Shown here: in pieces, positions 19,667-61,425 of the stretch
Layout: each line of letters begins with the position of its first letter
Position numbering within the stretch: the first letter of the stretch is position 1
From: Amphiscolops sp. MND2022
Taxonomy: Eukaryota
Reading direction: 5' to 3'
Length of the DNA stretch: 64,000 nt
Assembly: GCA_964187785.1 (NCBI GenBank)
Contig: OZ076409.1
Location: 53,942,001-54,006,000 of the forward strand
Made by a program: the position numbers and the translations under genes
The notes under the pieces: model-generated
Told to the model about the DNA's origin: nothing
What the model saw: only the letters and a program-made list of their open reading frames with translations
Databases searched by the model: none

Positions 19667-20566
19667 ATGCATACTACTGAGAATGCAAAAGAAATACTTT
19701 CAACTGTTCAAGAAACATTGGACTCCAAAACTGTTGCCTTATTTGAAAACCTTATCAACGCGATTCAAGAACAGTCTTCCGTCATAACAAAACTCCACAA
19801 TCGAGTTCTTTTTCTGGAAAATAAAGTCAATGAACTAGAAAGATATTCGTCAAAAGATTGCCTAATTATTAACAATTTACCATTATTGAATGGAGATTAC
19901 ACAAAAGATGTCCTGGCTCTTTTCAACGATGTACTTGGAGTGGAGGTGACGGCCTATGACCTCAAAGCAGTTCATCCACTGGGTGTCGTGAGTAAAAACA
20001 AACCTTGTACTGTGATTACAAAGTTCGTATATTTTGATATTAAAAACCGAATTTGGGGAAGGAAAAAGTTTTTGAAAAACTACGTGAATCCTGCAAATAA
20101 ACGACCAGTATTTCTCAATGAAAGGCTGACACAACGCGATTTGGAACTGAAAGATTATGCGAAAGGTCTAGGCATGTATACAACAACATTCAATTCTGCA
20201 CCTCAAGTTTTGGTTCCCAACGCCAACGGTGGATATCAAAGACATACTTTAGTTGATTTCAAAGATGCAGATGATATTTTCCAAAAGAAAAAACCTTTGT
20301 TATTTAAACAACAAATGACTGGACGAAATCCTTCAATGTTTAACATGGACAACAAAGATGCCAATTTGAAGTTGCAGAACAACAAAGATAAAAGACAGCG
20401 TGAGCAGACACCAAGGACCGCTGAGACAATGAACATTGCTGAAAAATTGAAACAACTTATGGATGACAGGGATGGTCTGGTCAATTTCATAGAATCCTTG
20501 CAAAAAGATTCGCCAGTACCCAAAATGATGAATAACAAGGAAACTGAAGGCATGGAAACTAACTAA
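19667..20566 (+). CDS. LINE ORF1 (coiled coil plus RRM-like domain)
   Basis: Heptad-rich N-terminus, then ELERYSSKDCLIINNLP ... VITKFV ... VFLNERLT, typical of LINE ORF1; lies directly upstream of ORF2. Confidence 0.85.
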   Translation: MHTTENAKEILSTVQETLDSKTVALFENLINAIQEQSSVITKLHNRVLFLENKVNELERYSSKDCLIINNLPLLNGDYTKDVLALFNDVLGVEVTAYDLKAVHPLGVVSKNKPCTVITKFVYFDIKNRIWGRKKFLKNYVNPANKRPVFLNERLTQRDLELKDYAKGLGMYTTTFNSAPQVLVPNANGGYQRHTLVDFKDADDIFQKKKPLLFKQQMTGRNPSMFNMDNKDANLKLQNNKDKRQREQTPRTAETMNIAEKLKQLMDDRDGLVNFIESLQKDSPVPKMMNNKETEGMETN

Positions 20567-20576
20567 GTGTGATCTA

Positions 20577-27165: not shown

Positions 27166-30100
27166 TTAATCTCTGGATACCTCCGGGAAATCTTCGGATC
27201 CCACATCCAAGTCAAAGAACCAGACGTCGTGGAACACCTCGTAGAAATTCGGCAGCTTCTTCGGTCTTTGGAAGCACTCGTTTTCCTTCACTTTGGGGAT
27301 CAACTCTCCAGCTGGTAAGGTGCTGAAGAAAAACCTGAAGAAGTCAGACGTGTTCAAATTGGACTTGAAATGGTTCATAAGTAGCAAAAACTGTCACATA
27401 AACTGAGACCGGAAGCATAACTGAGACCGGAATCTTTGAGCTTGATTTCAATCATTCAAAAGTGAGAAGTATTTTTAGAAAAAACGAAGTTCGTAAGTTT
27501 ATGATACTTTTTTGTTGTTTCGAAAGAATTCTTGAAAATTTGAAAAAAAAATCAAATGTCTTGATGAAAGAGAAGTGAATGTTTAAGACCAGTTACCAGG
27601 CAAACGTGCGCCAGAGAAAGAAGCGCCCCAGTCAGAAGCGCATGGATTATACAGACAAAAGCGCCTCAATAAATAGTTTTCAGTTTGAAAGCATGCATTA
27701 ACAAATTAATTCATCAAGAAATAACAAATTTTGTTCATTAATATCAAAGTTCTCAACCTGGTCGGTTTTTATTGGCAACATTGATAGCAACATTTTGATG
27801 TGATGTCATGATTGATAATGTCATAATTGGTTTTCTGACTGAGTTATTATGCTCTATCAGTACCTTCAACTCAACCAATTTTAGGAAATATAAAACAACT
27901 CAGTTATTACGAAGGCTTTTTTGATTAAGATCTTATGACTGGGCGCTTTTGTCTGTAAAAATTGAGACACTCTGGAGGCCTAAAAAGATATGCTTGTCGC
28001 TTCACTGTTTGACTGTTATTCAGACCTAGTTCGTTCAGCTGAACAAGTGTTGGGAGTTAACGAAAAGTTTCGTGAATAAAAAACACTTCCATGGAAGTAG
28101 CTGCGCATCATGCTAAAAATAGAACTGTACTTTCGACTAACTTACTCCCCGCAGTCAGGATTTTCATCAGTGGAGCAATTGACCCTGATCTTGAAGTATA
28201 TCTCGGGGTCTTGACCTTTGAAGATGCCCTCTATTTGAGAAGTGCTTCTATGGTGACACTTGAACAGCCCTATGTCCCTGGGCTCGGGCTGACAGTCCCT
28301 TAACCTGTCATCTGCGAAGTGCAAGTGCCGATCGTGTTCCCACATTTGAAGCTGAAATGGTAAGCATTTGTTTTTAATACTAATACAGTAACCTTAGTGA
28401 TGACATTAAATGATATGATCTCCTCAATGACCTCTAAAGTTGTTTCAATGTGATTGTTAGATAACTAACCTTTGATGTAGTGAAATTATGGATGAACTTA
28501 TGAATGAATCGCCTCAAACTAATTGAGGTCATATCTGACTTCAACAATAACGAAGCTTTTCCATGCCGTCATTTTAAATCATCTTAACTACGTAACTGCT
28601 ACTACAAGTTAGACTGCAATATACTTGGATGTTGTTGAAATTAGAGTGTGCCTGGTGATTCGAAAGTCGTTTTTGTGAGATCAGAAAACCGTTGAGCGGA
28701 GGACTTGAACCATTATCTTTAACCTAACTTGTCCTGAGTACAAATTTCCAGTGTATCTGAATTTTAAGACAAGGCATTCCAGAAAATCACGGCTTGAAGT
28801 CAGATAGTGTTTCATTATTTTAAGACGATCGGAATCGAGCGTTATTTATCGTGAATTTCGTGGTATCTAGAATAGTATTTCCATTTTAACGCAGTTAAAC
28901 CAGTAAAAAGCTGGTATTCACTGAAAGTAACTAGTATAAACTTTATATTCATATATGAATCTATCTCTGCGGTGAAAATTATTTTCATTTATCAAAAATT
29001 GTTTTGTTGGAAAACGCAGGTTTCTCAAATTATCTATTGAGAAGCTTAAGCTTCTCAATAGAAAATTTGGAAGGCCTGCGTTTCCGAACAAAAACAATTT
29101 TTGATAATTAACTCATGGAAAAAAATAACACTACTTTAGTCCAAAAAGCAAGTAGAAATCACAGAATTTTCAAAAACCATCTCAGAAAAACCCCTAAAAG
29201 AACAATAGTGGATATATCCAATGTTGTTCTTTTGAGGGTTTTTCTGAGATTGTTTTTGAAATTCTGTGATTTCTACTTGCTTTTTGGACTAAAGTAGCGT
29301 TTTTTTCCATGAGTTTTTTCAGCTGTGTAGCTCCGTAATTCTCTGAAATGCCTGAATAATGTGCTTGTATTGATTCAATATCTTCGAAAAATAGAGTTGC
29401 GTAATTTTCATCGTCAAAAATCTCGCCGTCCAAAGCTTTGTCGTATTTTTAGTCGTCGTGTTTTTTTCAATCCGGTTGAAGTGGCCATTCCATCCCAACT
29501 TCTTACGAAATTCCTACAAAATAGCAAATTGTTTGTGGTCCTTCTTTTCAAAACCTTGCGACTTCTTGGTTATTTCAATATCTCTGAAGAAGCAAATGTA
29601 TCTTTAAGCCCAAAGTAGCACCTTTGGTAATTTGCGGCACTATGCGATTTTTTAAATATTGACTTTTCAGAAAAGAGTTATCGTTCTGATTTTTTTGATA
29701 GTTTTAAAAATAAAAAGCAATTTTAAGCCCATTCATAGAATCCCCCATTAGGGTTTCTGGCACTGTGCGATTTTTTTTTCAAAATTTCACTATTTCAAGT
29801 GGGTCGTCCCCATGTTTTCTCGGTACGTATTGGTTTTACTTTTTACCCATATTCCATTCGGGAAAGAAAAATATATGACTCAGCCACGTTTTTTACAAAA
29901 TTGGCCATTATCCAAATTCATATTCAAAGTGAAGGGTGTCACCCATAGAATTCAAATGACATAATTTTAGTTTCGCGCGATATGTATTTGTAGAGATTTT
30001 TGGACTTTTTGGATATTACAAAAATGACCCCGAAAATTTAAATGTTGAAACGTTCAACAAAAAAGAAATCGTTGTACAGTTGGTCTTTTGTGAAGAGATA

Positions 30101-33100
30101 ATTGGTGTTTTGTGAACAAAAATTGCCTCAAATTGACCCCGAAAATGACAAAAACTCCAAAACGTTCTGATTTTCAACGTTGTTATGCAAATTTGTCAAC
30201 TCCGCGGGTTAGAATGTTGGAAACGTTCAACAAGGAAAACAGTCGACGTCAAGTAGGCTTTTGTGGAAAGATGGATGCAATTAGTCAGAGAGAAAAATGC
30301 AGTTTTTTCATTGAAAAATGCCTCGAAAAGACACCAAAAATGAAAGTTCCAAAGTTTTCCTGATTTTGTTGGTTTTCATATAATTTAGTTCAATTTTCGA
30401 AATATTTCATTGTTATATTGACAATTTGAGGTTACAATATTTGAGATTAAAATAAATTATTCAACTAGGCTCGCGCACGCTTTCAACAGAGAAATTTGCA
30501 GTTTTTTGGGAGAAAATCACCTAAAACATGCAAAAAAACTCTGAATTCTCAACCTTCTGACTTCTTAAACCGTTGTCTGGATAAGTTTTGAGCTACTTCT
30601 TACTGTGGTTCATAACACTCAGCAGCGACAAAACCTGTTATCCAGTAAGGGTTTTTGAAGGTATAGCAGCATTTTTAAAACTAAGTTTGACTTCAAAAAC
30701 ATTCAAAAGTCAAAAATACCCATAATTTTTTATCCATCTACCAACAATTTAATGGAATAGAACTTCTATTGACCTGAACGTTGCAACAATGGTGTCTTTG
30801 AAATGAAATTTGACAAACAAGGTGGGATCAAACGTTTCGAATTTGACAACAGAAGTTGGGCACTTTCCGGTCGTTTCCTTAACTAGAAATTCCATACGCC
30901 CAGGATTAAATCGTGAAGCTAACGGTAGTGTTTCCAAGAGATATCGGACAAATTATTTCGCAATATTTTTAGTCGGCGCTTTTCTAGTGAAAAAAGCCCG
31001 ACTATTACAGTGGTTAGTTTTTTTTCGTCAGACTTTTCACTCATCGCGTATGTACCACTTTATGTGAAAGATTCACTTTTACCAAAAGTACTCAGTAGTT
31101 GATTTTGAACGCATCCAAAGGCCTCTTCCTTGAAATTCAAAATCCAAAAGGTTCCCCCCTTCCAATTTTTTGGCGCTATGAGACTTTCCCCACCCCTTTT
31201 TCGGCTTTGTGAGATTTTTTTTCGAAGTTTTTAAAGTCTTCAAAGGGTCCCCTTTCTATTTTTTTGGTGTTTTGCACCTGAATGGATGTTGAAAAAGCCT
31301 AAAAAGTCCCCTTTTCTACAATTTTAAAAACTTTGCGCTTTTTGAGTTTTGAAAATGGCGCCGACTTTAGACGTTCCCGTCTTGTTTAAAACTGTATTCG
31401 AAAACGTAATATTCCTTTTCTCACATTGTTTGCGAAAAATTCATTGTTCAATGAGCTCCAGAGCTCCAAACGAAATCACCAGCTGTCATGCCAGCATGAT
31501 GGAAATATAATCTACTAAATATTTGTAATGTAAATATTATGTCTTATGTACTTAGATATGGGCAATATGATGTCATATAATAAGAGCCATGGTTGTGAGC
31601 AACCCTACGTTACTTGTACTTTAACCCCTATCCCCCCTGAGTTTGAGCTATATATATTTACTTAATACTGAGCGCTCTAATTCCGGTGTCCGCACAAATG
31701 ATCTGGCCAATAGCTTTTAATGTGCTATCTTATTCAATATTGGTTTGTCACGATAAGGGAGAGAAGTTTTCCGGTCAGACTGGACCGAGAGATGTAGAAA
31801 TAATGGAGTCTGTAACTTCTACTAGCTCCCTCGCCTCAGGACTTGTAGTCGTGACGAATTTCAGAAAAGTTCATCACTAATCCATCAGCGGACTTAGTGA
31901 TCCTACAACTTGATCTATTAATGAAATTACAGTGCTATATTATCAAGGTTCATCGCAATCACATCGCCAAGATTGCGGGTGAACAAAAATTGGGACTTCT
32001 ATTTGATTTCATTCAGTGATCCATCAGCGGATCTCACGGGACTTTAAAAATACATGAAAAACATCCTATACTCATCGTCGTTTTGTGATTATTAACCTTC
32101 AATGTGCTTCTCATTTCTTAAAAGAGCATAACACATCTATATTTCATCGTCTTGACTAGTAACTACAAGGAATGAGAAAGTACATCCTTAATTCATCCTA
32201 AAAAAGAGTGAAGTGCTGGATATCTGTTTTATTAGATTAACTCATCACTAGTTCATCGTAAATTCATCGCTAGTTCGACTTGCGTTAGAATTAGCCGAAT
32301 TTTCAGTTGAGTTCATCCTAAACTCATCGTTGGAATTTGATTCATTAGATTTTGCTGTTTTATTGAATGTATTCATCCTAAAGTCATCGTATATTTGTCT
32401 TTTTTGCAGAATTAGTTGTTTCACCTGTTTTATCGACTGAATTCATCCTGAATTCATCGTCAATTTCACTAGTGCTGGGAATTAGTTATTTTTCGAGGAG
32501 AGTTCATCCTTTTACCATCGTCGATTTAAATTGTGCTGGAAATCATTCATTTTGAAGACGAGTTCATCCTTTTATCATCGTCAGTTTATATCGTGTTGAT
32601 TTTCGAGCGAAAAGACCACCATTCATCGCATTTCCATCTTTAGGTTTGAAGTATTGATTTTAGTGCTGGAATTAGTAGGAAAACATCGTTTTCCCATCCT
32701 GTGATACAGTTTACTCTGGTTTGACTTGAAATTAGTACATTATTGAATGATTTGAGTTGCTATAGAAACCATGATACTGCGTGCAGGCAATTGCGACATT
32801 GTAAAGTGATGATTAGTCATAATTAGCGTATGTAGATGTACCATGTGGTTTGGCCAACTTGCGGCAGTTCACAACACCGGTCACGTGACTTACCAATTAG
32901 CACCAACTGGCAAAAGCCAATAAGAGTCGGCTGGTAAGAGATTTAGCGTCTTACCAGCCTGAAAAGACACGTGAACTGCTGTAGTTTGGACCGCCATTAG
33001 GGATTACTCAGACCGAAATTACGATTAGCTACTGTCCAGTTGGACGAATTACAACAGATTTGAACTAGAAAACACATCTCTTATTCATCGTAAATAACGC

Positions 33101-36100
33101 TACCTTCACGACTCTGAGTAATTTCTTGATAAATATCCAGCCGATGAAATTTGGATGAACTCTACTTAATCCTCGCTAACTATTTCCCGTTCTTTACTAG
33201 TATCCTTGCCTTACTGTAAAACTCATCGCATTTACATCTCAAGTTCAGAAATAGTGAATTTGAGTTCGAATAACAGCATAAAATAGAAAATACATCGAAA
33301 AATCATCCAGAATCCAGTCTTCACTCATAATTCCTTTTCTCCCACCTCTATGAACCCAGATCTAGGCACTGAACTCAGAAGCGGAAGAATTATTAGTTCC
33401 TCATTAGAAACACCTGTTCCAACGGATCCAGACATGGCTCAGTCCTCTGCCAATGACTCTGATAGTAACGAGACTTCTGATATCTCTTCTCAGTTGTCTG
33501 AAATAAAAGAGAGTTATGAGAGAAAAATAAACGAACTACAGAATGAGTTTAGTCAACTGAAGGACTTAATGATGGCTGTCATAAGTAAGACAGACACCGG
33601 AAACCGACAGTCAACCTCGAAAGGTCCTTCAAAGCCGACCCACACAGTAGGGCTCGACATGGTGACAGGAGCTACAGAAACCCGCTCCAACCGCCCAACA
33701 ACCAGCTTCACCAACTTCAGAAATTACCAAGAAGACGATTCAGACGAAGGAGAATCAACCCCCAGAAGCAATGAGGAACGACTACTCAATGCAATCGAGA
33801 CGATCCCCCAACGGATCAAAAACACAACCACCAACACGAAGCTTCTGCAGACACACGTGCCAAATTTCAGAGGCCAAAAAGACAAATTCGTCGAATTTGA
33901 GCACCTTCTCCTCAACCACCTTAGCCCGCTTGCCAACAAAATCACCGAGGAGAACAAACTACACTTCTTTCAAAGCCTTTTGAGAGATGACGCAATAGAA
34001 TACTGGCAATCCATCCAGATAACGCCAATGACAACACTAAAAGATGTACTCGACCTCTTCAGAAAAGAATTTGCAAAAGAGGATCTAAAGGAAGTGGCCC
34101 GTTACAAATGGGATCAAGCACGCTACGATCCCACAACAGAAACATTCGGCGATTTCCTCAAAAATCTCAAGAAGACTGCCAAACAAGCCTTCGGCAATGA
34201 GGCCGACAGAATAATCAAAATGCTCCTGTTTGGAAAACTGCCAGTCGAGATTCAACAAGAGCTCACCATGGCAAACAAAGAAGAGAGCTCCCCAGAGGAA
34301 ATCAAAACCTACCTAATGCGAAAATACCAGTACCAGCAGTACGTCGCGCCACCTACGGCAATCCAACCATTTAACGCGGTCACCTCCTCAGCACCACCTA
34401 CGATTACAACGACGAAGCCCACAACAACAACAACGACCGCACAACCGACAGAACGAAAACGATTTGAGGGACAATGTTTCTACTGCGGAAAGACAGGACA
34501 CCGCAAAACGGAATGTCGCGCCCGACAACGAGACGAAGCGAACGGCATAAAGAAGGAGGATGCAATCCCAATGAAGAAAGCAGCCGATCCAGATAAGCCG
34601 AAATACAATCCAAAATTGGTCTGCCAGATTTGCGGTTACACAGGCCACTCAGCAAGGGATTGCAGACGACGTGTCCCTAAAGAAAGCAGTTCTGCATATG
34701 GAAAGATTCCATACGCAACGAATTCACAAGATGACAACAGAACTAGAAGACAAGATTTAAAACGACAACAAAAGCCGATGAACCCTATGCAAGCAGTTGC
34801 CGAAGAAGAAGACCAAGAAAGCTACTCTGATGAAGACATAAATCAGGGTTTTTGATTCCGCCACGATTTCCACCCGCTAGAAACACAACGCGCGACCAAC
34901 GACTTTCGACTCAACCGACTACACACGACCGTCCAATGAAGAAATGGCAGCCTTCACTGGACAAACGACCAAAAGCTGACGACGTCTATCAGCGAAGACT
35001 TTCCAACGATGAAAAAGCGATGAGAAATGCACGTCAACTCAACGGCAGCCGCTTTTCTCCACTCGCTGAAATCAAAGATGATCAAACGATGAACTGGCAA
35101 CCAAACACCATGAGGCAGGTGGAAGATGCCAAAGAGATGGAAACCCACCATCTAGACGACGACTCGACTTCACACTCAACAATCGACAAACGGCTTAGTA
35201 TTAAAAAACATGCAAAACAGAGTAGTATTAACGTTTCAAAAGCTAAAAAACATGCAATTAAAACAGAAATTCACGTTCTCAGTCCCACTTTACATTTAAA
35301 CAAGAAAGATAAAATGCTGTACGTCCCTCTTCAGTTTGACAAATACGAAAACAGCGCACTTTTAGACACAGGCGCAATACAAAGTGCAATGTCTGAAGCC
35401 GAATTGCGAAAAATAACAACGGCTCATCCAGAAGCCATCCTTCAAGAATTCCCCCCTCCGAATTTCAAAATTCAAATAGCAAACGGGAACTTAGTCCCAG
35501 TGCGTAAGCAAGTCTTACTTAGATTTTACGTTGCTGGAAAAGTATTCGAAGAAACGTTCCTAATCCTTCCAACAATGGGAACAATTTTAATTGGAATGTC
35601 CTTTTTTGAAAAGTACTCAGTCAACTTAGACATCAAAAACCACCTTGTCCACTTCCCTAATCACATGATGTCTATGCAAGTTAGACAGCAAAAGAACAAC
35701 AGATTCAAAACTGGTTTAATTGATTTGTGTTCCAGTACCAGAACAGTGATCCCTCCTCTCCATCAAGTGATGATACAGGTCCACAGTGACGCGGACATCT
35801 CACTTACAACCGGTACAGTTGAGGGCTCACCTGGATTCATGCGAAAGACGTGTTTGCTTGTTTCTCCAGCTTTGGTTGACCTAGACGAGGGCAAGACGAC
35901 AATCCAGGTCACCAACCCAAACACCCACACGTACACACTTGAAGCTAACACCACTCTGGCACACTTTCGCATCCCGACACCACACCAGGCGGCAAACATC
36001 ACGCCCATGCCAGTGGAACACTTGAATTTGATCACCAAGTACCCAGATGAAGCCGAAGCAGTGATCAACCAACTGTTCGTGAACCCTGAAATGAAGTCAA

Positions 36101-39100
36101 CCAAGTGGTACCCAACTCCCGAGACGTGCAGTGAGCCAGACAAACTCAACGCAATTGAGCGACGGATTTATGATGAGATTCTGGCACTGCGAGAGCTCGA
36201 GAAGCTTGACCCGTCCCAATCCGATGAACAACGGATGAACTTCCTGAAGAACTTCAACTGGGACGACTCGCTTCTTACTCCGTCTCAACGGTTACAGGTA
36301 GAGGAGTTGCTGGTAAAGTACAACTCCATTTTTGCTAGACATCGTTTTGATATTGGCATGAACACTGATTTTAAAGTTGAGCTAACACCACAACATGAAG
36401 AACCTGTTTGTTCACAAAGTCTCCCTACTCCGACAAATTTGAAGGACGATTTGCTCGTGGAGTTAGCTTTAATGCAAGAGTACGGGATTATAACTACTTT
36501 GCCTCACAGCAAATACTCTTCCCCAATATTTGCTCAGCGTAAACCTAATGGTAAATTGAGGATTTTAGTTGACTTGAGAAGAATAAACCACCTGATCAAA
36601 AATGATTACGGTGAGCACAATCATCCCGTAACAACAATTGCTGACGCTGCCCAACACATGGCCGGGAAAAAGTACTTCTGCAAACTTGATTGTTCCCAGG
36701 CCTACCATTGCATTCCAATGGCCGATGAGCAATCTGTCCAACTGTTATCGTTTAATTTTGGATCTAGAACTTTTGCATTTTTACGTCTAGCACAAGGTCT
36801 TAATCGTTCTTTGTCAGCATTTACAGGAGTAATCCGTGAGTATTTGGACCCCTTGGTCAAAGCGGACCGCTGTGCCCAATATGTTGACGATATTGGAATT
36901 GCAGCACACTCACCCGAAGAATTGATTACCAACCTTGAACTTGTTTTTCAACAATTGCACAAAGCTGGTCTTAAACTTAGCATGAGTAAATGTGAATTTG
37001 GACAAAAACAAATTGAGTACTTGGGAAAAACCATTTCTAGCACTGGTATTGCTCCCATTGAAAAACGCGTAACAGACTATTTAACCAAGTTGAAACCCCC
37101 CAATTCAGTGAAAGCGTTGCAACGTTATCTTGGTTTTGTAAACTTTTACAGGTCTTACATTCCCCGTCTAGCTGATAAAACTTGTTGTTTACAGGAACTC
37201 ATCAAGAAAGACGTCCCTTTCAAGTTGAACCAACAACATAAAGATGCTATTTTTGAAATTAATGAAAGTTTGTTAAAAGCAACAAAAGTGTCTCTGAAAT
37301 TGCCACTACCAGATAAACAACTGGTAATCATGTGTGACGCCAGCGAACACGCTGCAGGCTATGTGTTGTTAATCGAGGATTATGCAGACCCGTCAGTCAA
37401 ACATACATACGCCCCTGTTGCATTTGGCTCTAAGAAATTTCAGGGCGGCCAGATGTCTCTAACAATGTATGCCAAAGAGTTTTTAGCTATGCACTTTGCC
37501 TTCGATGAATTTGGCCACATTTTGTGGGGTGCGAAAAAACCCATCATTGTTATGACTGACAATAAGGCCTTGACTAGATTTTTCCAGGCGAAACATATCC
37601 CGCCTTCACTTTGGAATTTTTGCGATCAAACCCTTCAGTTCAATTTTCTATTAGCACATGTTCCAGGAGTTGAAAATCCCGCAGCGGATTACTTATCTCG
37701 GCTTGAGATTAGACCTGAAGATCGTGTACATTTAAAATTGACTGATACTATTCCAATTCACAGGATCGAGATCGACATCGCCTCCCGTACACCAAAACAG
37801 GAGGAGGACGAGCCTGATTACTTCCCCGCGAGCGAACCACTCAGATGCAAACGCCAGAAGGATGTCAAAGAGATGAAATTGGCAACTGGCACTGACGTGG
37901 CTCATGACGATGGGAAAGGGATGAAGTTCACCAACTGTGAGAGAACAGCGGCCTCAGATGACTTCGCGACTGACAACCATCTGACGTACCGCCTCACAGA
38001 CGTGGACGAGCCGATTCAACTCTCGCAATTCATCCGTAAAGTATCATTATCACACCCGGTAATGAGTCAGGTTAGCCCCGCCGAGGGGATCGATCTAATT
38101 CAGGTCCAGAAAAATAACTGGGTGATCCAAAAAATGATTAGATTTTTAGAAGGTACTGAAATTTTGCAACACCCAGTTAATATGCAAGACCAGTTTTTTC
38201 AAAAGTTGTACAAAAATCGAAAACGCCTACAAGTTGTAAACGGTGTCTTGTACAGACAGTTTTTTGATCACACGGGACTAGAGTCTCACAAGCAGTTAGT
38301 CGTTCCTGAAGACTGTATTTTGAAAATAATTAGGACTCTACATAACAGCCCGGTACAAGGACACCCTGGTTTAAAGAAAATGTTGTATGAACTTCGTAAA
38401 AGATATTACTCTCCTAACTTAGCCTGTAAAGTTCAAAAGGTCCTTGACGGATGCGAAAACTGCATGAAGTCTAAAAGTGTAAAAGAAACACAACTTCGTC
38501 CACCGTTACAAAAAATCTACGACCCGTGCGACGGACCAGAAGACCTGTTGGAAATAGACATCGTTGGTCCACTCCCGGCATCGAACGGTTTTACACACAT
38601 TCTGACGGCTGTTGACGTTTTTTCTCGCTACCTGTTCGCCGTTCCGCTGAAGAGACCTGATACACATTCCGTAGTCAGAGGATTACTGTCGATCTTCACA
38701 AAACATGCGTATGTGCCCAAACACATTCTGACGGACAAGGGCACGGCGTTTACGGCTGAACTTCTGTCTGAAATCGCGAAAGCGGCTGACATTCACATCT
38801 CCCATGCCACGATAAAGCACGCGCAGACAATAGGCATGGTGGAGAGAACGCACGCGAAATTGAAAAAGATCCTTAAAATTAGTATAAACGCAGACAGACC
38901 ACAATGGGACCGCTATGTCGACATAGCAATCATGGCCCATAACACGACGTATCATGATTCACTGAAATGTTCACCAACTGAAATTTTCCACGGAAGAACA
39001 CCATACAACTCACTAGATCTGCAATTCAGAAACGCAAACAAACCGGCTGAAACAAAGTGCAAGGACGTGAACGAAATTCTAGACAAAATGAATTTTATCT

Positions 39101-42100
39101 TCAGAGACAATCTAGATAACATCATTTCCGCCTATCACAAGTACAAAACGTACTATGATAGAAAAGCACGAGCTCAGCCACTGAAGGTGAATGAATTTGT
39201 GTTCCTACTAGATCCTAAGTACGACTCTCAGAGAAGCAAAGAAGAGTTTAAAACTTTCCATTGGAAAGGACCGTACAAGGTGATTAAAGTGCTATCCGAT
39301 AGCAACTATATCATCCGCAAAGTAGGCACACACCAAACTCAGTGCGTACATCGCATGCGACTGAGATTGTTCAAACCGGAATTTCCGATTGATGACATCA
39401 ACGTGTCCAAACATCTTTACCCGGACACTGAAAGGGTTGAAGATACGGACATATTCGATTCGAATATTCCGACAACCGACGAAGTAGATCAGAACGAGAA
39501 CGACAATATAGATCAAGACTTAGTCGAAGATGAACCTTCAGCAGAAATAGTTCCACCAGTACAAGAGCGACACAGTCCACAAGTATTTCCACCAGAAATA
39601 ACCACGAGAATAGAATATCAACAAGTAGAAACTGACCACAACAACTTTAGACCACCTATAGTTAGATTTGGAACGCGAGAAGAAATTATTCTACCGCCTC
39701 CCCGCGATGAGAGTAGGATAAGAGTACCTCTGAGAGACGAACAACACGAAAATCAGTCACAACAGCCAAACACGCAAAACGAAGATGAAGAAAGGATGAG
39801 TTCTAGACCGTCTAGATCAAATCAAAGTAGGTACAGGTTACGTGAGAACCCTACACCGAAAACGTATCCAGACTTCCTCATTCATGAGATTACTTCAGCT
39901 AGAAACGCACTGAGAAAGACCAACAAAATAGACGTACCGATTTAGCCAAGAAAAGTCTCACTTTAAATCTGAGATGTGTTACGGATGAACAAATCACAGA
40001 AACGAACGAATTACATGCAATTTTAACTTAAAAAACACATGAAGATGTAAAATGGATGAAAAGTTACTAAAAATCACATGAAAAACGCATACAAACAAAA
40101 CGCGATGTAAAACGGATGGAAAACGATCAAAAAACCAGGAAAAACAACACACAAAAATTTGAGATGAAAAAAGGATGAAACCACATGAAAATTTAGCTCA
40201 GACACACGAGAGATGAAAAAGTGATGAACTCAGTCAAGATTTCGACTAATCTACATGCAACATTTACTAGCGATGCATTTGAGATGGTAAATACCATCAG
40301 AATGCAAACGCACCCACGTTCATGCTATCATAAGACTCTAGCTCGGCTAGAGGATGAAATAGCGATGAACTTGAAACAATTATTCATAAAATACATGAAA
40401 TCAATCAACAAGATGAATTTGTGATGGACACTACCATCAAATCGTGACCGAATTTATCGTTAACCGGACACAATACTCTAGCTTCGCTGGAGGATGTCAA
40501 AACGATGAATTTAGTCTAAATGGAAATTCGAAAATATTAAATGACTTACCAACACCTCCTTGTGATGGGAAACACCATCAACATAACATCACAATAAATC
40601 AGCTAATTCTCAAACAACATGTAACTCCACGAAACGATAAAAAACAACCGACCTTATTCCGAATCATGCAACGAAATTATGCGACACAAAAATGAAATGA
40701 TCAATACATGTAAAGTTCAAAGACCTGCCAAATCAATGACGTCACGAAAGCAATTAACAATTCCAAACTACATGCAATACAAATGAGCAACGCACGGAAA
40801 TATACATGTACCGTTCAAAAATGAATGAGATAATATATGCAATTCACACCAAAACCATCCGAACCTAGACGAATAAAAATGAAACAAACAAACGAAAATA
40901 CATGAAGTCTACTAACTTACATGCAAAATATAAGAACTGACGAAACACCTACAAAACTAATAAAGGAGTGAGCACCACCCCAGTAAACATCAGCTCATAA
41001 CATACAAAACACCCCTATCGAAAAGCTAAAAACATTCCTTCGTGCTGGCTGGCATTTCTCTGAAAAGAGTGCTGGTTAGTTGAGGCGGGGAGCTCACAAC
41101 CATATTCGGATGAAGCTTGCTGCGTTGGTTATCCAGCGGCTAGTGGATTCTCAGTTAGTTTTGTAGGGGCTTTGTGACGACAAAGCCCTGTCCAAATGAA
41201 CGAAAATAAAATTAAAAAACATGAAACTAACACCGAACATATAACGACATGTCAATAATGGGGCAACCCATTTAAAAGAACACATCATGTAACAATCCAT
41301 ACATGCAAATACAAGAAACAGATAGTCTAAAACTGGACACATGCATAACCGTAGTTGTCAATCATATTAATTGATCGGACTGACCGTCAAATGGACAAAC
41401 CCATTTCGACGAATAATGGCAAACAACCAACCGAAAAAATGACATATAGACTATATATAGCCCGAAACTACGAGATTCCATTCATCTGAAAGGAGCGGAG
41501 CAGCTCCACTCACCCAGCTCTGGACTGAAGCCACTAGTACCTCGCACGCCTACAGGCTATCAGTACCACTGCTGAGTGAACCTATTTTCGACTGCCACGC
41601 AAGCGGCGGTCACCAGAATTCGAACTAAAAATACATGCTATGACGTTCCGAAGATGACAAATTAGAAAAATGACGACGATGATCAAAACACATGTACCAT
41701 AAAATTCATGCAAATTCAAAAACACGACAAACGGTTATAACCGTATAACGCTAAAATACATGAAGAAAATACTTCGAAACACCGCAATATTAATAAAAAT
41801 TTCCCCCAGACATGCAAAATGCAACCCCCGATTACGTTATAGCCAAATAACATCGAAAACACGCAAAAATTCATACATTTCAAAACCACGATGAAAAGAA
41901 GATGAACTATACAGCAAAATGAGCAAAAACTTGCCAAGTCAAACTTGCGATGCAAAAACGATGAATTACACCAAAAAACTAGCAAAAATGCAAAAATTCA
42001 AAGGCAAGATGAAAAAACGATGAACTATGTAGAAAAATCACATGTAACAAACATGCAACGAATCGCATATAACAAACGATGTAAAAAAGATGAAAAATCA

Positions 42101-45100
42101 CTTTTCGCGACGTCGCTCGGCCGACCGAGGAAAACGTGATGAAAATACGATGAGAAATCAAAATCGAAGCATTACTGAAATATCTTCACATACACGCGAT
42201 GTCCTAAAGGATGAACAACGTTAGAAAAGAACACATAAGCGATGCGAAAAAGACGACAAATGAAAATAGAGACGCTGAGTACTGCGACCTACAAAAGAAC
42301 CCCATTACCGTAAACCTAACCGACCGCTACCTGCACAATTAATCACTAGTATCTCAAGAGAAAAAATATTCGGGCGCCAAATAATTCTTCTGTAAATACA
42401 ACCTGCCACCGATTTTTCCGACGCAGCAGTTACCCCCCCACCACTTGCAGTGGCACATTGACTTGGTCACCCACTAAAACTATACTATAATGTAATATAA
42501 AGCACTACTTCAAGTAAACGAAAAAATGAAATAAAATAATCCACAATCAAAAGTTCAACAGACTAGAATTCTCAAATCTCCGGACTCGGAGCACGTTCTC
42601 CTTCTTCAGTAAATCCTAGCAGTTCGTACAGGGATTGGCGATAATCCTCGGCAGCCACCACACCGACGTCGTCCCATGGCATGTCGTCCGTTACATCAGA
42701 CAGCGTCGTAAATCGTCCAAATGATTCAGCGATTTCCTCCAAGAAAGGTCCACTGACACTCTCGTATCTCCGTATACGATGAGCCTTGAGAAAACTCAGA
42801 ACACTCGAACACACGCTGGTCGTGATGTCACTCCGTAAATGGCCCACACTACCACAAGGTGTTCTCAGCGGCAAGAGTGGACTCTCGTTCAAGCACATTA
42901 GAAACCTGAACAACCGCTGCGCAGATACACCATCACACGCTCGGAGAATTTCGACAGCAGAACTCGCACTATCTGAAGTCACTCCAGTAGCAATCCGCCG
43001 ATAGTTATCCAAGAATACAGGGAAACTTCTATCCATCCGCCTTTTCTCCACAGCGGTGACTCGTCTCAGCTCCATTAGCAACTCAGTAAACTGTGCAACT
43101 TCCGCTGACAAAACATCAGGATCACAAGACAATAGCAGGGCCGGACAGCAAACGCTCAGATGGAAAGTTACCTCTTCTTTCACTCCTCGTACACTCAAGA
43201 ACTCCTCCACGACCATCAACAGAAAGTCTTTCACTAGAATGACATTCCCTTCAAACACGTCAGGGCGCTCGAAACAGTCCAGATGGGCAGCAAACTCCTC
43301 ACGAAGAGAATTTAACTTGGCATCCGAAACCACTAGCCCATTGAGGTCAATGCACAAACAAGCTCGTACATCCAACACGGCAGGAAGATCTGACTCTTCA
43401 ACGACATAGGACAAAATAGTGTGCACGAAGCATGAACTTTCATATGACCAATGTGCAGTCCTCAGTTCGCAGCCACTGAAGCTCCAACGAAAGGTAGTAA
43501 CGACTAAAATCAAACAAAATTTCATTGAGAAGTGTATATAATAGCCCCCCCCCGCTACAAACACCGACAATCAAACCAAACTTCATAGATAAGTGTATAT
43601 AACAGCCCCCCCTACAAAATAGATTACTAAACATTAAACTGTACATACGAGCACGAAACACCAGCGACAAAGCATGAAGACGAAGAGACACACTAGGGTC
43701 ACCACACAGCACAATGTCCAAAGTGTCAGGCACACCAGAATTACCAGGAACCCTCAGTAGCACAACGATGTCCAACCAATTCGTATGGAGCTCTGTCAGT
43801 ACGTCGGGAACATCCCACAGAGTGACCTCTCCCTCCAGTACAGCCTAGAAAAACATCGAGTTGGATAATAACAATTTACCAAGATCCACCACTCGCCCAA
43901 CTTAAAAGCACACGATCTCCAACAAATAAACATGCAATTAGAAACACTGATATAGAACACATATTCACCTGCAATAGTTTCGGACAAGATAGTAGAACGG
44001 CATCATGCACAAAGTCCTTCAGCCTTGTCTGCAAATGATTAAGCAGTGTATGCACATCAACACCGCCCATAACGCGCACACTCGCGTCAACAAGCACTTT
44101 ATTCAGGTCGCTGATCCGCAGAGGAATGAGTGAAACAGCTCCTAGTCCAGAACCCCTCAACAGCGCACGCTCTAGCCTGGGTAACAAACTGCAGTTGACA
44201 CCAATAGGAGAGACCTGCCCCACAGCACAACAGAGCAAGTTGACCATCCAGGAGACCACACGCTGTTCCCATTCTTGCGAGTAATTGAAGGATAGAACCA
44301 CATAACTTGCGAGTCCCTCCACAGTACACACGCTCACGGTGCCCACCACCCTGTCCGCCACAATAGACACACCAAAACTAGTGAACTCGGTCTCAGTCCA
44401 CAAACTCAGTACTCGCCGCATGACATAGGGCCACAACCCCAAAAGGACCACACTCTAAACATAAAAATCGGAATCATTTAAAAGACATTTAGCTCATTTT
44501 CAGGTACACCCCCAACCCAGAATAACAAAAAAATAAAAGAAAAAACGCCCTAATTGTTGATTACTAGTGCACGCAAAACATGAAACATATCATATGACAT
44601 ACAACACATGAAAATATAATAACCAGTACATCAGCCTCTCGACACGCCGAACCAAACAAAACAGCATGCTGGGAATTCGAAGACACCATCAGGTCCCAAA
44701 GATGACGCACACTCGAGAAATCACAGTCGCGATATATAGCATCCACGACCAGGCACACGAACAGCTTCACACTTTCAACCTGTGCACTGTCGCTCGATGC
44801 GCATATGTCGCCCCACACCGATCTGCCAGTCGCCTCAATCTGTAGAGCCTCGATCACGGTCACATTGGGACATGACTCAACTACCGGCACTGCTTCGCCA
44901 GCTAACGTCGTCGTACATACATCGCACTCAGCTTCGGACATGAGCGTCCCATCCCGTTTCCGCAGTGCGAGCCCACGTCGCAATCGCACCAAGCAATCCA
45001 GACGATGATGCCTCATTCCGCGGCAGTGCTCAAGAAATGTCGTTATGCCGCGGCTACCGATCTTTACATCCTGCTTGCAAAGTAGGCACCGCGCGTACGA

Positions 45101-48100
45101 ATCACGTGTCAGGTGATCTTTTGGAAAACCTAACGCCAATCCACAATAAGCATGGTCGAACCACGCTGACTTGAGAACTTTCCTTCCTGAAATAAAAAGA
45201 AAACAAATCTACAAAAATCATCCTTTCAAAACTGAAAAATGAAAATACCACGAAAAACTTCCAAAAAGTCACCCGGAGTGATGAAAAAATGATGTAAAAT
45301 AATATTTTCATCGGGAAATATAAGCGAAAAACGAAGAGAAAACGAAAAGATGAAAACGAGATGTGTTTGCAGACCACCAGAATGGAAATTGAAACCTTTA
45401 AAGACGAAAACTCGAACGATGAAAAAGAGATGTATAGAACGACTTTAAACCAAATTTGAGATATTCTAGAGCGAAAAACAACTTAACGATGAAAAAGAGA
45501 TGTAAACTGAAAAGAAAACACTGAAAGATAGTGAAAACCGAAAACGAGAAATTTTAAAGATGTAAAAGAGATGGAAAGTGGCTAAAATAGTTAGAATGCA
45601 AGACAAAAGAGAAAAACGCCATGTTTGAAAACTTTTTACGATGAGAAAATGATGAAAAAACATAACTTGCAAAATTGAACAGCGGAAAAAACTAAAACGA
45701 TGGAAAATAGATGAAAAAGACGAAAAATCTGAATTGCTAGCAAAAATGAAAAAAAAGGGAAAATGAATGAATGCAGGTACTGATCAGATACTTCACATGT
45801 TTTAAAGCTGTTTAGGTAACCTGGGAGATGGGAAGCAATTGGCTCATCGTCTGAGTCTAGTAGGCTAGGCCCCATCGGAGAAGTTACTGCAAGCTCAAGC
45901 TCCAGATGAAGTGGAACTGTCTCCGAATCAAGTGCGGCAGACGAGGGATCAGCAATCGTGATGCCTGCTGGAGCGTCAGAAAGAGTCCCTGTGCCGATGG
46001 CAGGATCCTCAGGAATGATCGCCTCAGGGTGAACAGAAGCAAAAGTAACAGTCTGATTGGCATCAGGGGTGAGCAGTTCAGTATCATCGACGACTGGAGG
46101 AGAAGCAGACAGGGAAGTCTCCACCTGGGGTTCATAACATGTGGAACCATCAGCAGTCTCAATAACGGCTTGGACCTCCTTGTCCACAGTATCCACACAG
46201 GCATTCAAAGAAGCGTCACTGCAGCAGACGACAGCATTGACACCCGACTCAATTGTAAGTCGGGGACGGCGTGGACTGACAACTGAGAAAGTTCGCTGCA
46301 AAACCGGCGACAACACCGAAACCGGCGTCCACCTGACTGGAGAACTGGTATCGGCGGCAGACAGATCGTTGAGGAACGACGAGACGTTCAGTTGTGGTGG
46401 CCCTCCGGAAGTGTTGACAGTTACGCCCTCGTCTGGGTAGTCACTGGTCCCAATCCCGATCGAATACACGATGGGACGTGGGACAGGCGCATGAATCGGA
46501 GTAGGGCCTACAAAAAATAACACTCAAACAGAAATGGGCCTGAAAAGAAGAAACAGTTACTGGACGACGACGATTAGAGAAGAAAGAGCGCGTACGCCGC
46601 GCGAAGAAAGAAGACCGGAGAAGAATTCATCCAAAACTCATCTTCAGAAATGGGATTCACAGCGAGATCAGTCATGAAGAGCTGTGAATGTTCATGACAC
46701 ATCCTAAATTCATCTTAAAAATGAATTACATGGGTAATCGACCGCAAAGGACACTACATGCAGATGAGATGTTTACATCGGAATCACATCGGAGTGTTCG
46801 GACGATAGCTTAGAGGAGTGAAAAGGAAATTGACAAATTCACTGTACTGCTGGATGCTGTCCCGCAGCATGTCCCGCATGTGGCGGTCATACCACCCGAA
46901 GGTGATGCTGCCCAGGGAGGCATACCAAGGGTAGTGGTCTGAAACACCGAACGAAAAGGGGTAAGCTACTGGACGAAGTAAGGATGAGATATGAGGGATT
47001 CGAAGACTGAACTGAAGAATGGAAGGATAGTACTTACACTGCGGAAGATACGGGACGTTAGGGGCCTGTTCAATTTGCTGCTCGGGTTGATACTGAGGTG
47101 CGTGAGATGCTGCAGGGATCGGAGCCTCTTGAGGCGGAACTGTCTGCAATGTAGTCAGTTCGGAAATTATGCCGACAGAGTGAACGGAGTCCGCTAAAAC
47201 CAAGACACGCCTTCAATTCCTAATTGTTCCCCGGCCCGTTTGTGAAGAAGAGAAAAATAGTGCACTTACTTTCTGTGGCCTCGGTCTCCGGTAACGAATA
47301 GACGGAATTGATATCCGACATCGCGAAGAATTGCAAAAACAATCTGAAAAGAATGGAAGACGGTGAAAGAAGGAAAGAAATCGAAGAAATCCAGGAGCAG
47401 AGAATTTGATCAGTAATTAAATGGCCTGATCAACCATGATTACAGAAGAACAAATTCAATAGAAGATTTCAAAGAGCGCGACGCAGCTTGAATGCCATGT
47501 TAATCAAACACTTGAATTCAGAAGATGAAAAATCGATGAAAATTCTCCGATTTCAAATACTGACATCACTTTTCTTCCCAGTACAACCAACTCAAGCTTT
47601 CTCTGAAAATGGATCGTCCTCTCCTAGGACTTGACAAAAAACTTCAAGTATTTGATTTGTTGACAGCTGCCAGTCTCAGATCAATACCGACGAAGTTGAG
47701 CGGAAACGCGCGAAGGAAATCGTGGCGATTTTCAAACCGACTTGAATGGAGGATGATTTATGGATGAGAATGCGGCTGACAACCGGTTGTAATTTCCTTC
47801 AGTTATAAATTCAGTCTCAACCAATCAGATCGAGCAACAGTTGCTATGGCGACGAATTCATCTCTTTCTCATCCACTCAAAAGTCGAGCAGCGGAAGTAA
47901 CTTTTGACAGTTGCTATGGCGACGATTCATCTTCTTTCCATCGCGAGTAAACAAAGCAAACGGCGCCAGCCATTCCGCTAAACAGCATCGATGTCTCGCT
48001 GAGCAAACAATTCATCGTTCATTCATCCCGACTCGCTGCCAATTTGTCAATGAAGCCAATCGAATTGTTTATTCAGCGTAGGCGTTTTGGAGGGAAACTT

Positions 48101-51100
48101 TTCTCCGAGAAATCAGCTTCTACCGAAAATAACCAGCCGAAACTCCCGTCAAAAGCATGACAACCAATAAAATGCAGATCAGCGGACATTCGATGGACCA
48201 AGAATTAGAGTTGCCGCGTCGAAAATTTTAACCGAAATCACCCAGGATGATGCCAGAAAAGACGGTTACCGAAGGTCCTCTTCTCAGAGAAGCTCTCACA
48301 GGACAGAACAAACGAAGGACATACCAGTTCAGAACTAACGAAGGCCATTTTTCCCCAACTAAACGAAGGACCAGTCGAAGCCAACGCCGAGACAACCATC
48401 CTCTGCACATTTGGCCCCTGCACTCTCAGTCCAAATCCCGCCCCGGGGAGTGTCATGCCAGCATGATGGAAATATAATCTACTAAATATTTGTAATGTAA
48501 ATATTATGTCTTATGTACTTAGATATGGGCAATATGATGTCATATAATAAGAGCCATGGTTGTGAGCAACCCTACGTTACTTGTACTTTAATCCCTATCC
48601 CCCCTGAGTTTGAGCTATATATATTTACTTAATACTGAGCGCTCTAATTCCGGTGTCCGCACAAATGATCTGGCCAATAGCTTTTAATGTGCTATCTTAT
48701 TCAATATTGGTTTGTCACGATAAGGGAGAGAAGTTTTCCGGTCAGACTGGACCGAGAGATGTAGAAATAATGGAGTCTGTAACTTCTACTAGCTCCCTCG
48801 CCTCAGGACTTGTAGTCGTGACGAATTTCAGAAAAGTTCATCACTAATCCATCAGCGGACTTAGTGATCCTACAACTTGATCTAATAATGAAATTACAGT
48901 GCTATATTATCAAGGTTCATCGCAATCACATCGCCAAGATTGCGGGTGAACAAAAATTGGGACTTCTATTTGATTTCATTCAGTGATCCATCAGCGGATC
49001 TCACGGGACTTTAAAAATACATGAAAAACATCCTATACTCATCGTCGTTTTGTGATTATTAACCTTCAATGTGCTTCTCATTTCTTAAAAGAGCATAACA
49101 CATCTATATTTCATCGTCCTGACTAGTAACTACAAGGAATGAGAAAGTACATCCTTAATTCATCCTAAAAAAGAGTGAAGTGCTGGATATCTGTTTTATT
49201 AGATTAACTCATCACTAGATCATCGTAAATTCATCGCTAGTTCGACTTGCGTTAGAATTAGCCGAATTTTCAGTTGAGTTCATCCTAAACTCATCGTTGG
49301 AATTTGATTCATTAGATTTTGCTGTTTTATTGAATGTATTCATCCTAAAGTCATCGTATATTTGTCTTTATTGCAGAATTAGTTGTTTCACCTGTTTTAT
49401 CGACTGAATTCATCCTGAATTCATCGTCAATTTCACTAGTGCTAGGAATTAGTTATTTTTCGAGGAGAGTTCATCCTTTTACCATCGTCGATTTAAATTG
49501 TGCTGGAAATCATTCATTTTGAAGACGAGTTCATCCTTTTATCATCGTCAGTTTATATCGTGTTGATTTTCGAGCGAAAAGACCACCATTCATCGCATTT
49601 CCATCTTTAGGTTTGAAGTATTGATTTTAGTGCTGGAATTAGTAGGAAAACATCGTTTTCCCATCCTGTGATACAGTTTACTCTGGTTTGACTTGAAATT
49701 AGTACATTATTGAATGATTTGAGTTGCTATAGAAACCATGATACTGCGTGCAGGCAATTGCGACATTGTAAAGTGATGATTAGTCATAATTAGCGTATGT
49801 AGATGTACCATGTGGTTTGGCCAACTTGCGGCAGTTCACAACACCGGTCACGTGACTTACCAATTAGCACCAACTGGCAAAAGCCAATAAGAGTCGGCTG
49901 GTAAGAGATTTAGCGTCTTACCAGCCTGAAAAGACACGTGAACTGCTGTAGTTTGGACCGCCATTAGGGATTACTCAGACCGAAATTACGATTAGCTACT
50001 GTCCAGTTGGACGAATTACAACAGATTTGAACTAGAAAACACATCTCTTATTCATCGTAAATAACGCTACCTTCACGACTCTGAGTAATTTCTTAATAAA
50101 TATCCAGCCGATGAAATTTGGATGAACTCTACTTAATCCTCGCTAACTATTTCCCGTTCTTTACTAGTATCCTTGCCTTACTGTAAAACTCATCGCATTT
50201 ACATCTCAAGTTCAGAAATAGTGAATTTGAGTTCGAATAACAGCATAAAATAGAAAATACATCGAAAAATCATCCAGAATCCAGTCTTCACTCATAATTC
50301 CTTTTCTCCCACCTCTATGAACCCAGATCTAGGCACTGAACTCAGAAGCGGAAGAATTATTAGTTCCTCATTAGAAACACCTGTTCCAACGGATCCAGAC
50401 ATGGCTCAGTCCTCTGCCAATGACTCTGATAGTAACGAGACTTCTGATATCTCTTCTCAGTTGTCTGAAATAAAAGAGAGTTATGAGAGAAAAATAAACG
50501 AACTACAGAATGAGTTTAGTCAACTGAAGGACTTAATGATGGCTGTCATAAGTAAGACAGACACCGGAAACCGACAGTCAACCTCGAAAGGTCCTTCAAA
50601 GCCGACCCACACAGTAGGGCTCGACACCAGCTAAACATTACGTCCTCCAAAAAATCGTTATGCAGTTTCCCAAATAGTCAGAAACCCTCCGAATGACCAA
50701 AAATCAAAATGATTTAGACGTTGTGGTGCAAACTTGTAAATTTTTTGAGCTATTTCGTAAATTAGAATGGTGTAAGCATTCAACAACGTCTGAACTCGGT
50801 ATCCAGTAGGTTTTTAGAAGAGATAGTTTATTTTGTGAACAAATTTACGAACTGACCCCAACGATGTCGAGAATAACAAATTTTCCCACTTTTTGACACT
50901 TCTTGTGACGTTTCGTGGAAATTATTAAATTCTTTGTGTATTACGTACTGGTATCCACATAGTTCAAGAACGAAACAATTAGGCACCTAGCGTGTTCATA
51001 AATTAGGCGTTTCCTCTAGAAATGGGCTGAGATATATCGAATTTGTCTCTTCTTTGAACGTCTATGGGTTTTCAAAGTGCATTTGCTGTTCATGAGTCTC

Positions 51101-60665: not shown

Positions 60666-60707
60666 AGGAAAATCAAAAATTGAATAAAGTTATGCCGGCT
60701 GTATGTC

Positions 60708-61045
60708 TAGAACAAATTGAAAACAAAAAATGAAAAATTTGAAGCAGTCTCTCAGTGTAGAAAAATGTAAAAGGAGGGGACCTTTTGGACTTTTTTGACA
60801 TTCATTTGTTGCAACAAAATTGAAACGGAGGACCCTTTAGTCTTGTCCGGTTCTGTATGTTACGTTAGATGTGGATTAAATGAAAAAAATTAACTTAGAT
60901 GCGTTTCCGCTGGTCGGTCCAGTAGTTTAGTAGTTTCTGTAAAAAGAGTTCAATACGCATAACTTTTCCTATCTGACGGAAAAAAAAAGAAAACATTCGC
61001 ACTGTAACCGTCGCGCTCTTTTTGTTAAAATGCGCCGTCTAAAAA
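60708..61045 (-). mobile_element. Helentron-type repeat copy (partial); near-duplicate at 63648-63985
   Basis: Shares ggggacc, ctttagtc..gtccgg, ggtccagtagtttagt and the actgtaa..gtcg..cgccg.ctaaaa end with 4274-4756. Confidence 0.6.

Positions 61046-61362: not shown

Positions 61363-61364
<2 letters not shown>

Positions 61365-61424: not shown

Positions 61425-61425
<1 letters not shown>

Follow-up and report, generated by a model that had tools for sequence, protein, structure and literature searches.

The 19.1-kb Ty3/gypsy LTR retrotransposon found in the analyzed window (the whole 64-kb stretch of DNA under study) is densely marked with strictly spaced GATG-N7-GATG dyads. On balance, we lean towards reading these dyads as conserved family-specific tags, likely the sites of a zinc-finger protein encoded by the element itself in antisense, probably a captured and dead hAT transposase, that would coat the copies of the element to keep them transcribed.

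Structure of the Element

The element occupies positions 31484–50626. It carries paired TG...CA LTRs, a short target-site duplication (CCAGC at 31479–31483 and 50627–50631), a tRNA primer site, and gag followed by protease, RT, RNase H and integrase in this order (Pfam), the features of Ty3/gypsy membership (Table 1). The two LTRs are 99.68% identical, with 7 differences, and the element is young. The CpG observed/expected ratio in the element is 0.99, and C>T changes are no more frequent at CpG (20/340) than elsewhere (84/1298); apparently, there is no footprint of CpG methylation.

Table 1. Coordinates of the element's features in the window.
Feature	Position	Strand	Description
5' LTR	31484–33659	+	2,176 bp, TG...CA; 18 dyads; contains gag start
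Main LTR array	31872–32698	-	14 dyads, CATC-N7-CATC on +; one triple at 32243/32254
Second LTR group	33075–33307		4 dyads: 3 minus, 1 plus
gag ORF	33349–34855	+	begins within LTR; zinc knuckles
Primer-binding site	33660–33672	+	complementary to tRNA-Leu(CAG) 3' end; matching tRNA genes in genome
pol ORF	34834–39945	+	protease, RT, RNase H, integrase (Pfam); 8 dyads in N-terminal region, linkers and tail
Array 3' of pol	39973–40590	+	9 plus-strand and 1 minus-strand dyad
Array past cargo gene 3' end	41890–42152	+	5 dyads
Cargo gene	42572–47321	- (antisense)	7 predicted coding exons; splice sites read from sequence
Predicted cargo exons	about 47321–47270, 47193–46843, 46507–45821, 45186–44630, 44454–43969, 43844–43649, 43503–42572	-	
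Zinc-finger cargo exon	44630–45186	-	C-x2-C-x16-H-x5-H and following helices; alignment, weak zf-BED match, model
Dyads in large cargo intron	45280–45713	+	7 dyads
Dyads in cargo intron 46508–46842	46628–46790	-	3 dyads
Dyads upstream of cargo gene	47524–48027		5 dyads: 2 plus, 3 minus
3' LTR	48451–50626	+	same 18 dyads, at 48839–49665 and 50042–50274

Distribution of the Dyads

A total of 74 dyads were found in the window on both strands (32 GATG-N7-GATG and 42 CATC-N7-CATC). All of them lie at 31872–50274, that is, within the element, and the 44.9 kb of flanking DNA contain none. The arrays are real and stronger than in the original prediction, which had put them at about 60 dyads. At each of the other spacers between 0 and 15, only 0–4 same-orientation pairs occur in the window. 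The element counted with one LTR has 56 dyads; 200 dinucleotide shuffles averaged 0.65 and reached 4 at most. The anticipated enrichment at spacer 7 is borne out. When all direct pairs of 4-mers with spacers of 0–20 were scanned without bias, GATG-N7-GATG ranked first among the word pairs. The match is strict, since dyads with one mismatch are hardly enriched (21 in the element, 1.10 per kb, vs. 0.85 per kb outside).

By region, there are 18 dyads per LTR, 8 in pol and 15 in the interval that separates pol from the cargo gene; two introns of this gene hold 7 and 3, and 5 lie upstream of it. The earlier counts for the array past the cargo gene, both introns and the upstream group agree with these numbers. 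For the LTR, about 16 had been given, the dyad at 33075 having been missed and that at 32444 having been placed at 32445; the nine GATG dyads recognized after pol are joined by an overlooked one at 40576. The motif had also been thought to be confined to non-coding DNA. It is indeed absent from gag downstream of its ATG, the cargo exons and the flanks, but eight dyads are located in pol (35008, 35077, 35125, 35425, 36223, 37861, 37909 and 39784); shuffling of synonymous codons gave 0.76 on average, and eight was reached in none of the 2,000 shuffles.

Density outside the element, a point on which the prediction could have failed, spoke in its favor: beside the empty flanks, the paired dyads gave 30,780 matches genome-wide vs. 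205 for the reversed-pattern control. The spacer-6 pattern gave 1,204, mostly from other repeats among the matches listed. Of the first 100 genome matches listed for the dyad, 99 were within clade-A-type clusters, an assignment made from three retrieved clusters with the remainder judged by eye.

Conservation and Phasing

Among sister families, conservation is restricted to the eight core bases (95–98% vs. 72–88%), so that motif and spacing are retained while the flanks diverge, as had been proposed. The two GATG cores form a base-exact conservation footprint, and the 11-bp period is invariant. Spacing from dyad to dyad changes in steps of ~10.5 bp (about one helical turn), and length changes of 3–8 bp are avoided. 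In family A2, same-orientation phasing was not seen (R = 0.16 at 10.5 bp); its LTR is alignable only in two short parts, and 39 dyads are kept in a different layout. Selection seems to operate on lineages that replicate, not on inserted copies. The footprint, the period, the helical steps and the presence of both orientations lend indirect support to the predicted arrays of binding sites for a dimeric or multimeric protein. The binder had not been named; the cargo protein of the element itself is the candidate to which the evidence points.

Antisense Cargo Gene

Homologues of the cargo ORF were identified in 10/10 sister elements. The dN/dS ratio is 0.05–0.13 in the three exons where it was measurable; judged by these values, the gene is under purifying selection. 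The C, C, H and H of the zinc finger are invariant in 15/15 aligned rows. The zf-BED profile matched three of the 15 rows (best E 0.012), and its match to the exon of the window was weak (E 0.06; 13.8 bits, below the 20.6 cut-off); a BED-type finger was also indicated by Atlas (0.77), as a lead only. Pfam scans of the cargo exons gave nothing over the cut-off. In particular, neither plant mobile domain/MAIN-like VANC homology nor Transposase_28 (PF04195) was detected in the exons scanned, and the hAT dimerisation domain (PF05699) had no match in 19 last-exon rows. According to the profile comparison, the last exon was unmatched with a thin five-row hAT alignment (probability 0.1).

Modeling of a clade-E-like homologue, not of the exons of the window itself (pLDDT 56), suggested an RNase-H-like fold. 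The top Foldseek matches of this model were with the Hermes hAT transposase, at a weak E of 0.02 and with no match at E ≤ 0.001, and by VIA Z hAT was tied with unrelated RNase-H folds. As for the DDE triad, the last-exon alignment inspected by eye contains no invariant acidic residue, its one near-invariant E being far from the expected place, and the middle-exon sequences seen have no constant Asp at the expected strands. The cargo is likely a captured, catalytically dead hAT transposase; for the hAT origin, two tests on homologues agree with each other, although both are weak.

Motifs of Related Clades

Related clades with a homologous cargo gene have no GATG dyad and carry other motifs instead, namely, ATGY-N13-RCAT, GGAC-N5-GTCC, GCCG-N5-GGC and TATGCGG pairs. 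Clades B, C and E have inverted motifs, whereas the dyads of clade A are direct repeats; the motifs of clade N are part of distinct 32- and 40-bp tandem arrays. In the cargo-less controls, only three distant gypsy elements with RT about 30% identical, none of the five scored motifs was present, except for one looser pattern, GCC-N6-GGC, found 11 times vs. 1.4 in L082-83, a signal that probably comes from its tandem repeats.

The RT and zinc-finger trees show the same clade grouping, so motif and cargo covary through shared descent, and there are only about five or six independent motif shifts. In the mosaic element L084, the cargo is L056-like and the backbone is L098-like, and the tags go with the backbone (E-type 9, C-type 6). 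In L098 itself, the tags lean to the E motif, and the cargo groups with clade C. Gag diverges rapidly between clades. The massing of a family-specific motif in non-coding parts of the element, characteristic of VANC-type systems, is present.

Proposed Mechanism and Alternatives

The cargo protein would bind the dyads across copies of its own element, presumably with one finger per 4-bp half-site and as a dimer or oligomer, and phasing between neighboring dyads may be cooperative. The bound protein would then activate the copies or protect them from silencing, which is the least secure step; because no sign of CpG methylation was found, it would act via chromatin or promoter access and not via DNA demethylation. 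A point against this reading is that half-sites are direct in some clades and inverted in others, for which the protein would need a flexible tether. Taken together, self-recognition of a VANC-like kind by an animal retrotransposon would be the best reading.

It is rather improbable that the dyads are bound by host transcription or chromatin factors, a different one in each clade, with the cargo doing something else. LTRs often gather host-factor sites, the covariation of motif and cargo is confounded with descent, and the mosaic L084 retains backbone-type tags, all of which would suit such binders. However, five or six factors would be needed, all reading spaced half-sites and each accompanying the diverging zinc-finger gene of its clade. 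Moreover, the sites extend beyond the LTR into introns, the post-pol region and pol codons, and the empty flanks and the concentration of genome matches in clade-A-type clusters also argue against host factors. Even with a host binder, strict, phased and clade-specific tags would be an unusual cis-code. Binding by the cargo for self-repression and copy-number control, or for cDNA handling (nuclear entry, compaction, integration) in the manner of a transposase wrapping subterminal repeats, is quite improbable. It is favored by phased sites spanning the whole element and by hAT transposases, described as placing multiple BED fingers on subterminal repeats in a nucleoprotein complex (PMC10368747), but selection on replicating lineages would favor an aid to copying over repression, and it is in the LTR and near the cargo gene, the expected places of promoters, that the arrays reach their highest density.

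Use of the motif by Gag, integrase or the RNA itself, for packaging or RNA structure, is very improbable. Gag, too, diverges fast, and hairpins could arise in clades B, C and E from their inverted motifs; the clade-A dyads, however, are direct repeats on both strands and thus neither a sense-RNA signal nor a hairpin, and their fixed 11-bp period suits duplex DNA. Hardly credible is a neutral leftover of an old tandem duplication with a ~60-bp unit, despite the weak 60–70 bp period still seen in the LTR, the tandem arrays of clade N and the capacity of 11-bp unit slippage to yield 11-bp steps. Conservation limited to the core bases largely refutes it, lone dyads persist in pol, and A2 keeps its dyads in another layout; duplication accounts for the multiplication of sites, not for their retention.

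As to the history of the preferred self-recognition system, we suggest only tentatively that a hAT transposase was taken up a single time by a lineage of animal LTR retrotransposons, which disarmed it and made it a private, sequence-specific self-activator. Over the radiation to thousands of copies, protein and site may have co-diverged into at least five to six orthogonal lock-and-key pairs, direct and inverted; anti-silencing by a VANC-like code would thereby be known for the first time from a retrotransposon and from an animal, and the zinc-finger proteins would form a natural library of dyad readers. If true, a gene captured from class II by class I would have been reused as counter-defence, which would help explain how one lineage fills so much of a 1.07-Gb genome and would leave a transposon protein with dispersed binding sites in the tens of thousands. 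The genome offers a direct test bed, with several clades that each have a predicted site of their own and a particular version of the one protein.

Comparison with Known Systems

Foamy-virus Tas and HTLV Tax are retroelement-encoded regulators of their own LTR. Tas and Tax/HBZ differ from the present case in that they come from retroviruses of vertebrates, have few LTR sites and no transposase origin, and to our knowledge have no clade-by-clade motif code. HBZ of HTLV is described as an antisense-encoded regulator (PMC11963269).

In the literature searched, sequence-specific self-encoded anti-silencing is established for plant DNA transposons only. VANC proteins of Arabidopsis VANDAL (Mutator-like) elements are anti-silencing proteins that bind a contiguous 8–9 bp motif and remove DNA methylation, according to the cited text (PMC5735166); VANC is reported to be probably MAIN-derived (PMC13547354). 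As here, an accessory gene is encoded by the element, a short motif is massed in introns, intergenic and terminal non-coding parts, related families have different motifs, and arrays are enlarged by tandem repeats. Unlike VANDAL, the present element is an animal LTR retrotransposon with a hAT-looking protein and gapped dyads also in pol, and it apparently has no CpG-methylation signature, as judged from the sequence. In Spm/CACTA, TnpA and transposase-derived activators are regulators within their own DNA transposon that act at its termini (bioRxiv 10.64898/2026.08.24.746577); the main text of that preprint does not contain the words retrotransposon or LTR. A transposase-derived DNA-binding module activating cognate copies via dense motif clusters would be the likeness, whereas here a probable class II transposase would have been captured by a class I element.

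What conserved antisense genes do in LTR retrotransposons is named in the literature as an open question (PMC7264820, PMC11963269). The plant gypsy elements Retand, Grande and RIRE2 have antisense extra ORFs with a TRP28 domain and of unknown function (PMC11963269, PMC7264820). Like the present element, they have a conserved ORF, antisense and placed between pol and the 3' LTR, with predicted DNA binding, and family-specific repeat arrays nearby; the present gene differs in having no Transposase_28 match, predicted introns and a BED-like finger. The cited text of both papers ties no motif to the ORF. In comparison with Hermes/hAT, the alignments obtained here show no conservation of the catalytic acidic residues, and the sites are spread across 19 kb of a retroelement. 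The predicted order of finger, helices, RNase-H-like half and long helical region would be the same as in Hermes, and in both cases a 4-bp site is followed by AT-rich DNA and occurs in pairs (PMC10368747).

Occurrence of the Dyads

GATG-N7-GATG dyads number 74 in the window: 32 have plus orientation and 42 minus, the latter appearing as CATC-N7-CATC when read along the plus strand. Any other spacer of 0–15 nt gives 0–4 pairs. All 74 are located inside the LTR element, and none was found in the 44.9 kb of the window flanking it. With one LTR counted, there are 56 dyads, compared with a mean of 0.65 and a maximum of 4 in 200 shuffles; one-mismatch dyads show hardly any enrichment. Two dyads 33–60 bp apart occur at 30,780 places genome-wide; the reversed pattern gives 205 and spacer 6 gives 1,204. 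Since a full element carries ~36 such matches, the genome-wide count suggests, as an estimate, on the order of 800 element-equivalents. The 7-nt spacer and the absence from flanking DNA noted in the original prediction are borne out by these counts, and its site lists are correct apart from small slips. Its statement that pol lacks dyads did not hold: pol contains 8, compared with 0.76 under synonymous shuffling, and 0 of 2,000 shuffles were as high.

The gag and pol frames of the element are open and in Ty3/gypsy order, and its primer site matches tRNA-Leu(CAG) genes of the same genome.

Conservation and Phasing

Ten sister elements, picked among 150 matches listed to cover 73–83% finger-exon identity, contain 60–78 dyads each (20 kb fetched per element). 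Aligned pair by pair, these elements agree at 95–98% in the eight core bases and at 72–88% in each neighbouring position. Same-strand steps in the window measure 48–49, 59–61, 69–72 or 81 bp in 34 of 38 cases (R = 0.78 at a 10.5-bp period), although similar lengths could also come from slippage of an 11-bp unit. Length changes of 3–8 bp affect 5 of 249 dyad intervals versus 38 of 317 control intervals, the rows sharing ancestry. The more distant family A2 lacks same-strand phasing. The dyads are a real cis-code under strong selection.

Among 29 close copies, private substitutions occur in cores at the background rate (10/64 versus 149/919), whereas shared ones are depleted (2/64 versus 125/919); numbers are small. 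This pattern suggests that the tags would aid element replication and receive no upkeep after insertion. The element and its close copies show neither CpG depletion nor CpG hypermutation.

Tags of Related Clades

Every clade has a tag of its own; the counts for B, C and N are partly post hoc, because the elements counted are those in which these motifs were discovered. Family A2, with ~70% identity in pol, 46% in the finger exon and an LTR that for the most part cannot be aligned, has the window's dyad in 39 copies with another layout. Clade B (pol ~58%; finger exon 30–41% where detected, in 6/8 elements) has 0–1 GATG dyads per element and instead carries inverted ATGY-N13-RCAT, with 9–19 copies in 7/8 elements and 3 in the oldest; its strict form occurs genome-wide 233 times versus 17. 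The clade C tag GGAC-N5-GTCC, scored as GGAC-N6-TCC, is present 8–12 times in 8/10 elements and 6 and 4 times in the other two (background ~2).

Eight more elements were fetched through two divergent-finger searches. The clade E motif was known beforehand from loci L078 and L084; GCCG-N5-GGCC is the top word pair in 4/4 clade E elements, each with 8–12 GCCG-N5-GGC sites versus 0.4–0.6. In two clade N elements, direct TATGCGG pairs recur at a period of 10 bp within tandem arrays of 32 bp; like the arrays of the window, these are situated in the LTR, behind pol and close to the cargo. Two others have 40-bp arrays with a pair of the inverted TATGC type. Three distant cargo-less gypsy elements score 0–3 on all five motifs, although one of them has tandem repeats of its own and matches a looser E-like pattern 11 times. 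Clade C, in which one element has a second extra ORF (L056), is also mildly enriched in the E-type motif, perhaps a sign of two binders.

Possible Role of the Cargo

On the most economical account, the cargo protein would be a transposase remnant retaining its finger and oligomerisation ability, predicted to recognise paired half-sites of 4–5 bp at fixed spacing. The Hermes BED finger, which is reported to read AAGT plus AT-rich DNA cooperatively in pairs (PMC10368747), offers a model. Phased arrays would place several complexes on the same helix face. Because replication falls to the lineages that keep the tags, repression is a less likely role than activation or protection from silencing. 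That the cargo binds its own tags and activates the element is, judging from sequence, somewhat more probable than the remaining readings together; a binding cargo with another role, for example on cDNA, is unlikely.

The RT tree and the finger tree recover the same grouping of clades, which suggests a single cargo capture followed by co-inheritance; any element trait would co-vary with the motif. The cargo-less controls are few and distant. Binding of the dyads by host factors is a minor but credible prospect. Two loci count against simple self-binding: in the mosaic L084 the tags go with the backbone, not the cargo, and L098 leans towards the E motif though its cargo is C-type. Use of the motif by Gag, integrase or RNA is very unlikely, and a neutral by-product, to which slippage might contribute step lengths, is extremely improbable given the core conservation.

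Self-binding with activation would work like VANC/VANDAL (PMC5735166) and transposase-derived activators such as TnpA (10.64898/2026.08.24.746577). Membership in these systems was rejected (no VANC homology, retrotransposon carrier, gapped dyads, no methylation signature). In plant Retand elements (PMC11963269, PMC7264820), antisense ORFs of unknown function occupy the same place as the window cargo, but contain a TRP28 domain that the latter lacks. Searches of one literature library listed no report of such a system.

Other Observations

Cargo exons are mosaic among clade A families (L031–L050 versus the window): L039 matches at 98% in pol and 95% in exon 2, dropping to 59–72% in the last exons, and L043 is 94% identical in exon 3 only. 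These mosaics suggest that the cargo would recombine frequently.

Coordinates of features in the window and in other loci (L) of the same genome, the latter numbered within each locus
Feature	Position	Strand	Observation
Clade B gag-protease fragment	8875–10800	+	Decayed, without GATG dyads; pointed the way to clade B
RGS12/14-type host gene	14439–18644	+	Unbroken frame of 1,401 codons; PDZ, RGS, Ras-binding domains; apparently intron-free over this stretch; marks the host as an animal
LINE	19664–23450	+	Looks intact; ORF1 300 codons, endonuclease-RT ORF2 972 codons
Palindromes	28994–29306		Nested, with inverted repeats, 47–54 bp
LTR element	31484–50626		LTRs 2,176 bp, 99.68% identical, TG...CA ends; target duplication CCAGC
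gag start	33349–33672		Inside LTR by ~310 bp; frame crosses tRNA-Leu primer site, hence ~104 gag codons on every 3' LTR and solo LTR
Cargo gene	42572–47321	-	Antisense, predicted spliced
~1.17-kb repeat	55750–63900		About five copies, 60–99% alike
Related repeat pieces	4281; 31197–31387; 50738–50908		Both sides of element
Second extra ORF, clade C	L056:2921–3811	-	297 codons, gag-pol strand, near 3' LTR; CxxC motif, no Pfam match
Clade C copy	L114:862–4863		First large cargo exon duplicated in tandem, in frame; 1,334-codon frame, two fingers
Separate MITE family, presumably CACTA-like	L116:950–1397; L117:996–2142; L118; L119		Short terminal inverted repeats; dense CATCGATG subterminal arrays, 10–11 bp period; apparent 2-bp target duplication
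tRNA-Leu(CAG) genes	L138:123–2847		At least 12 in tandem array, ~220-bp spacing
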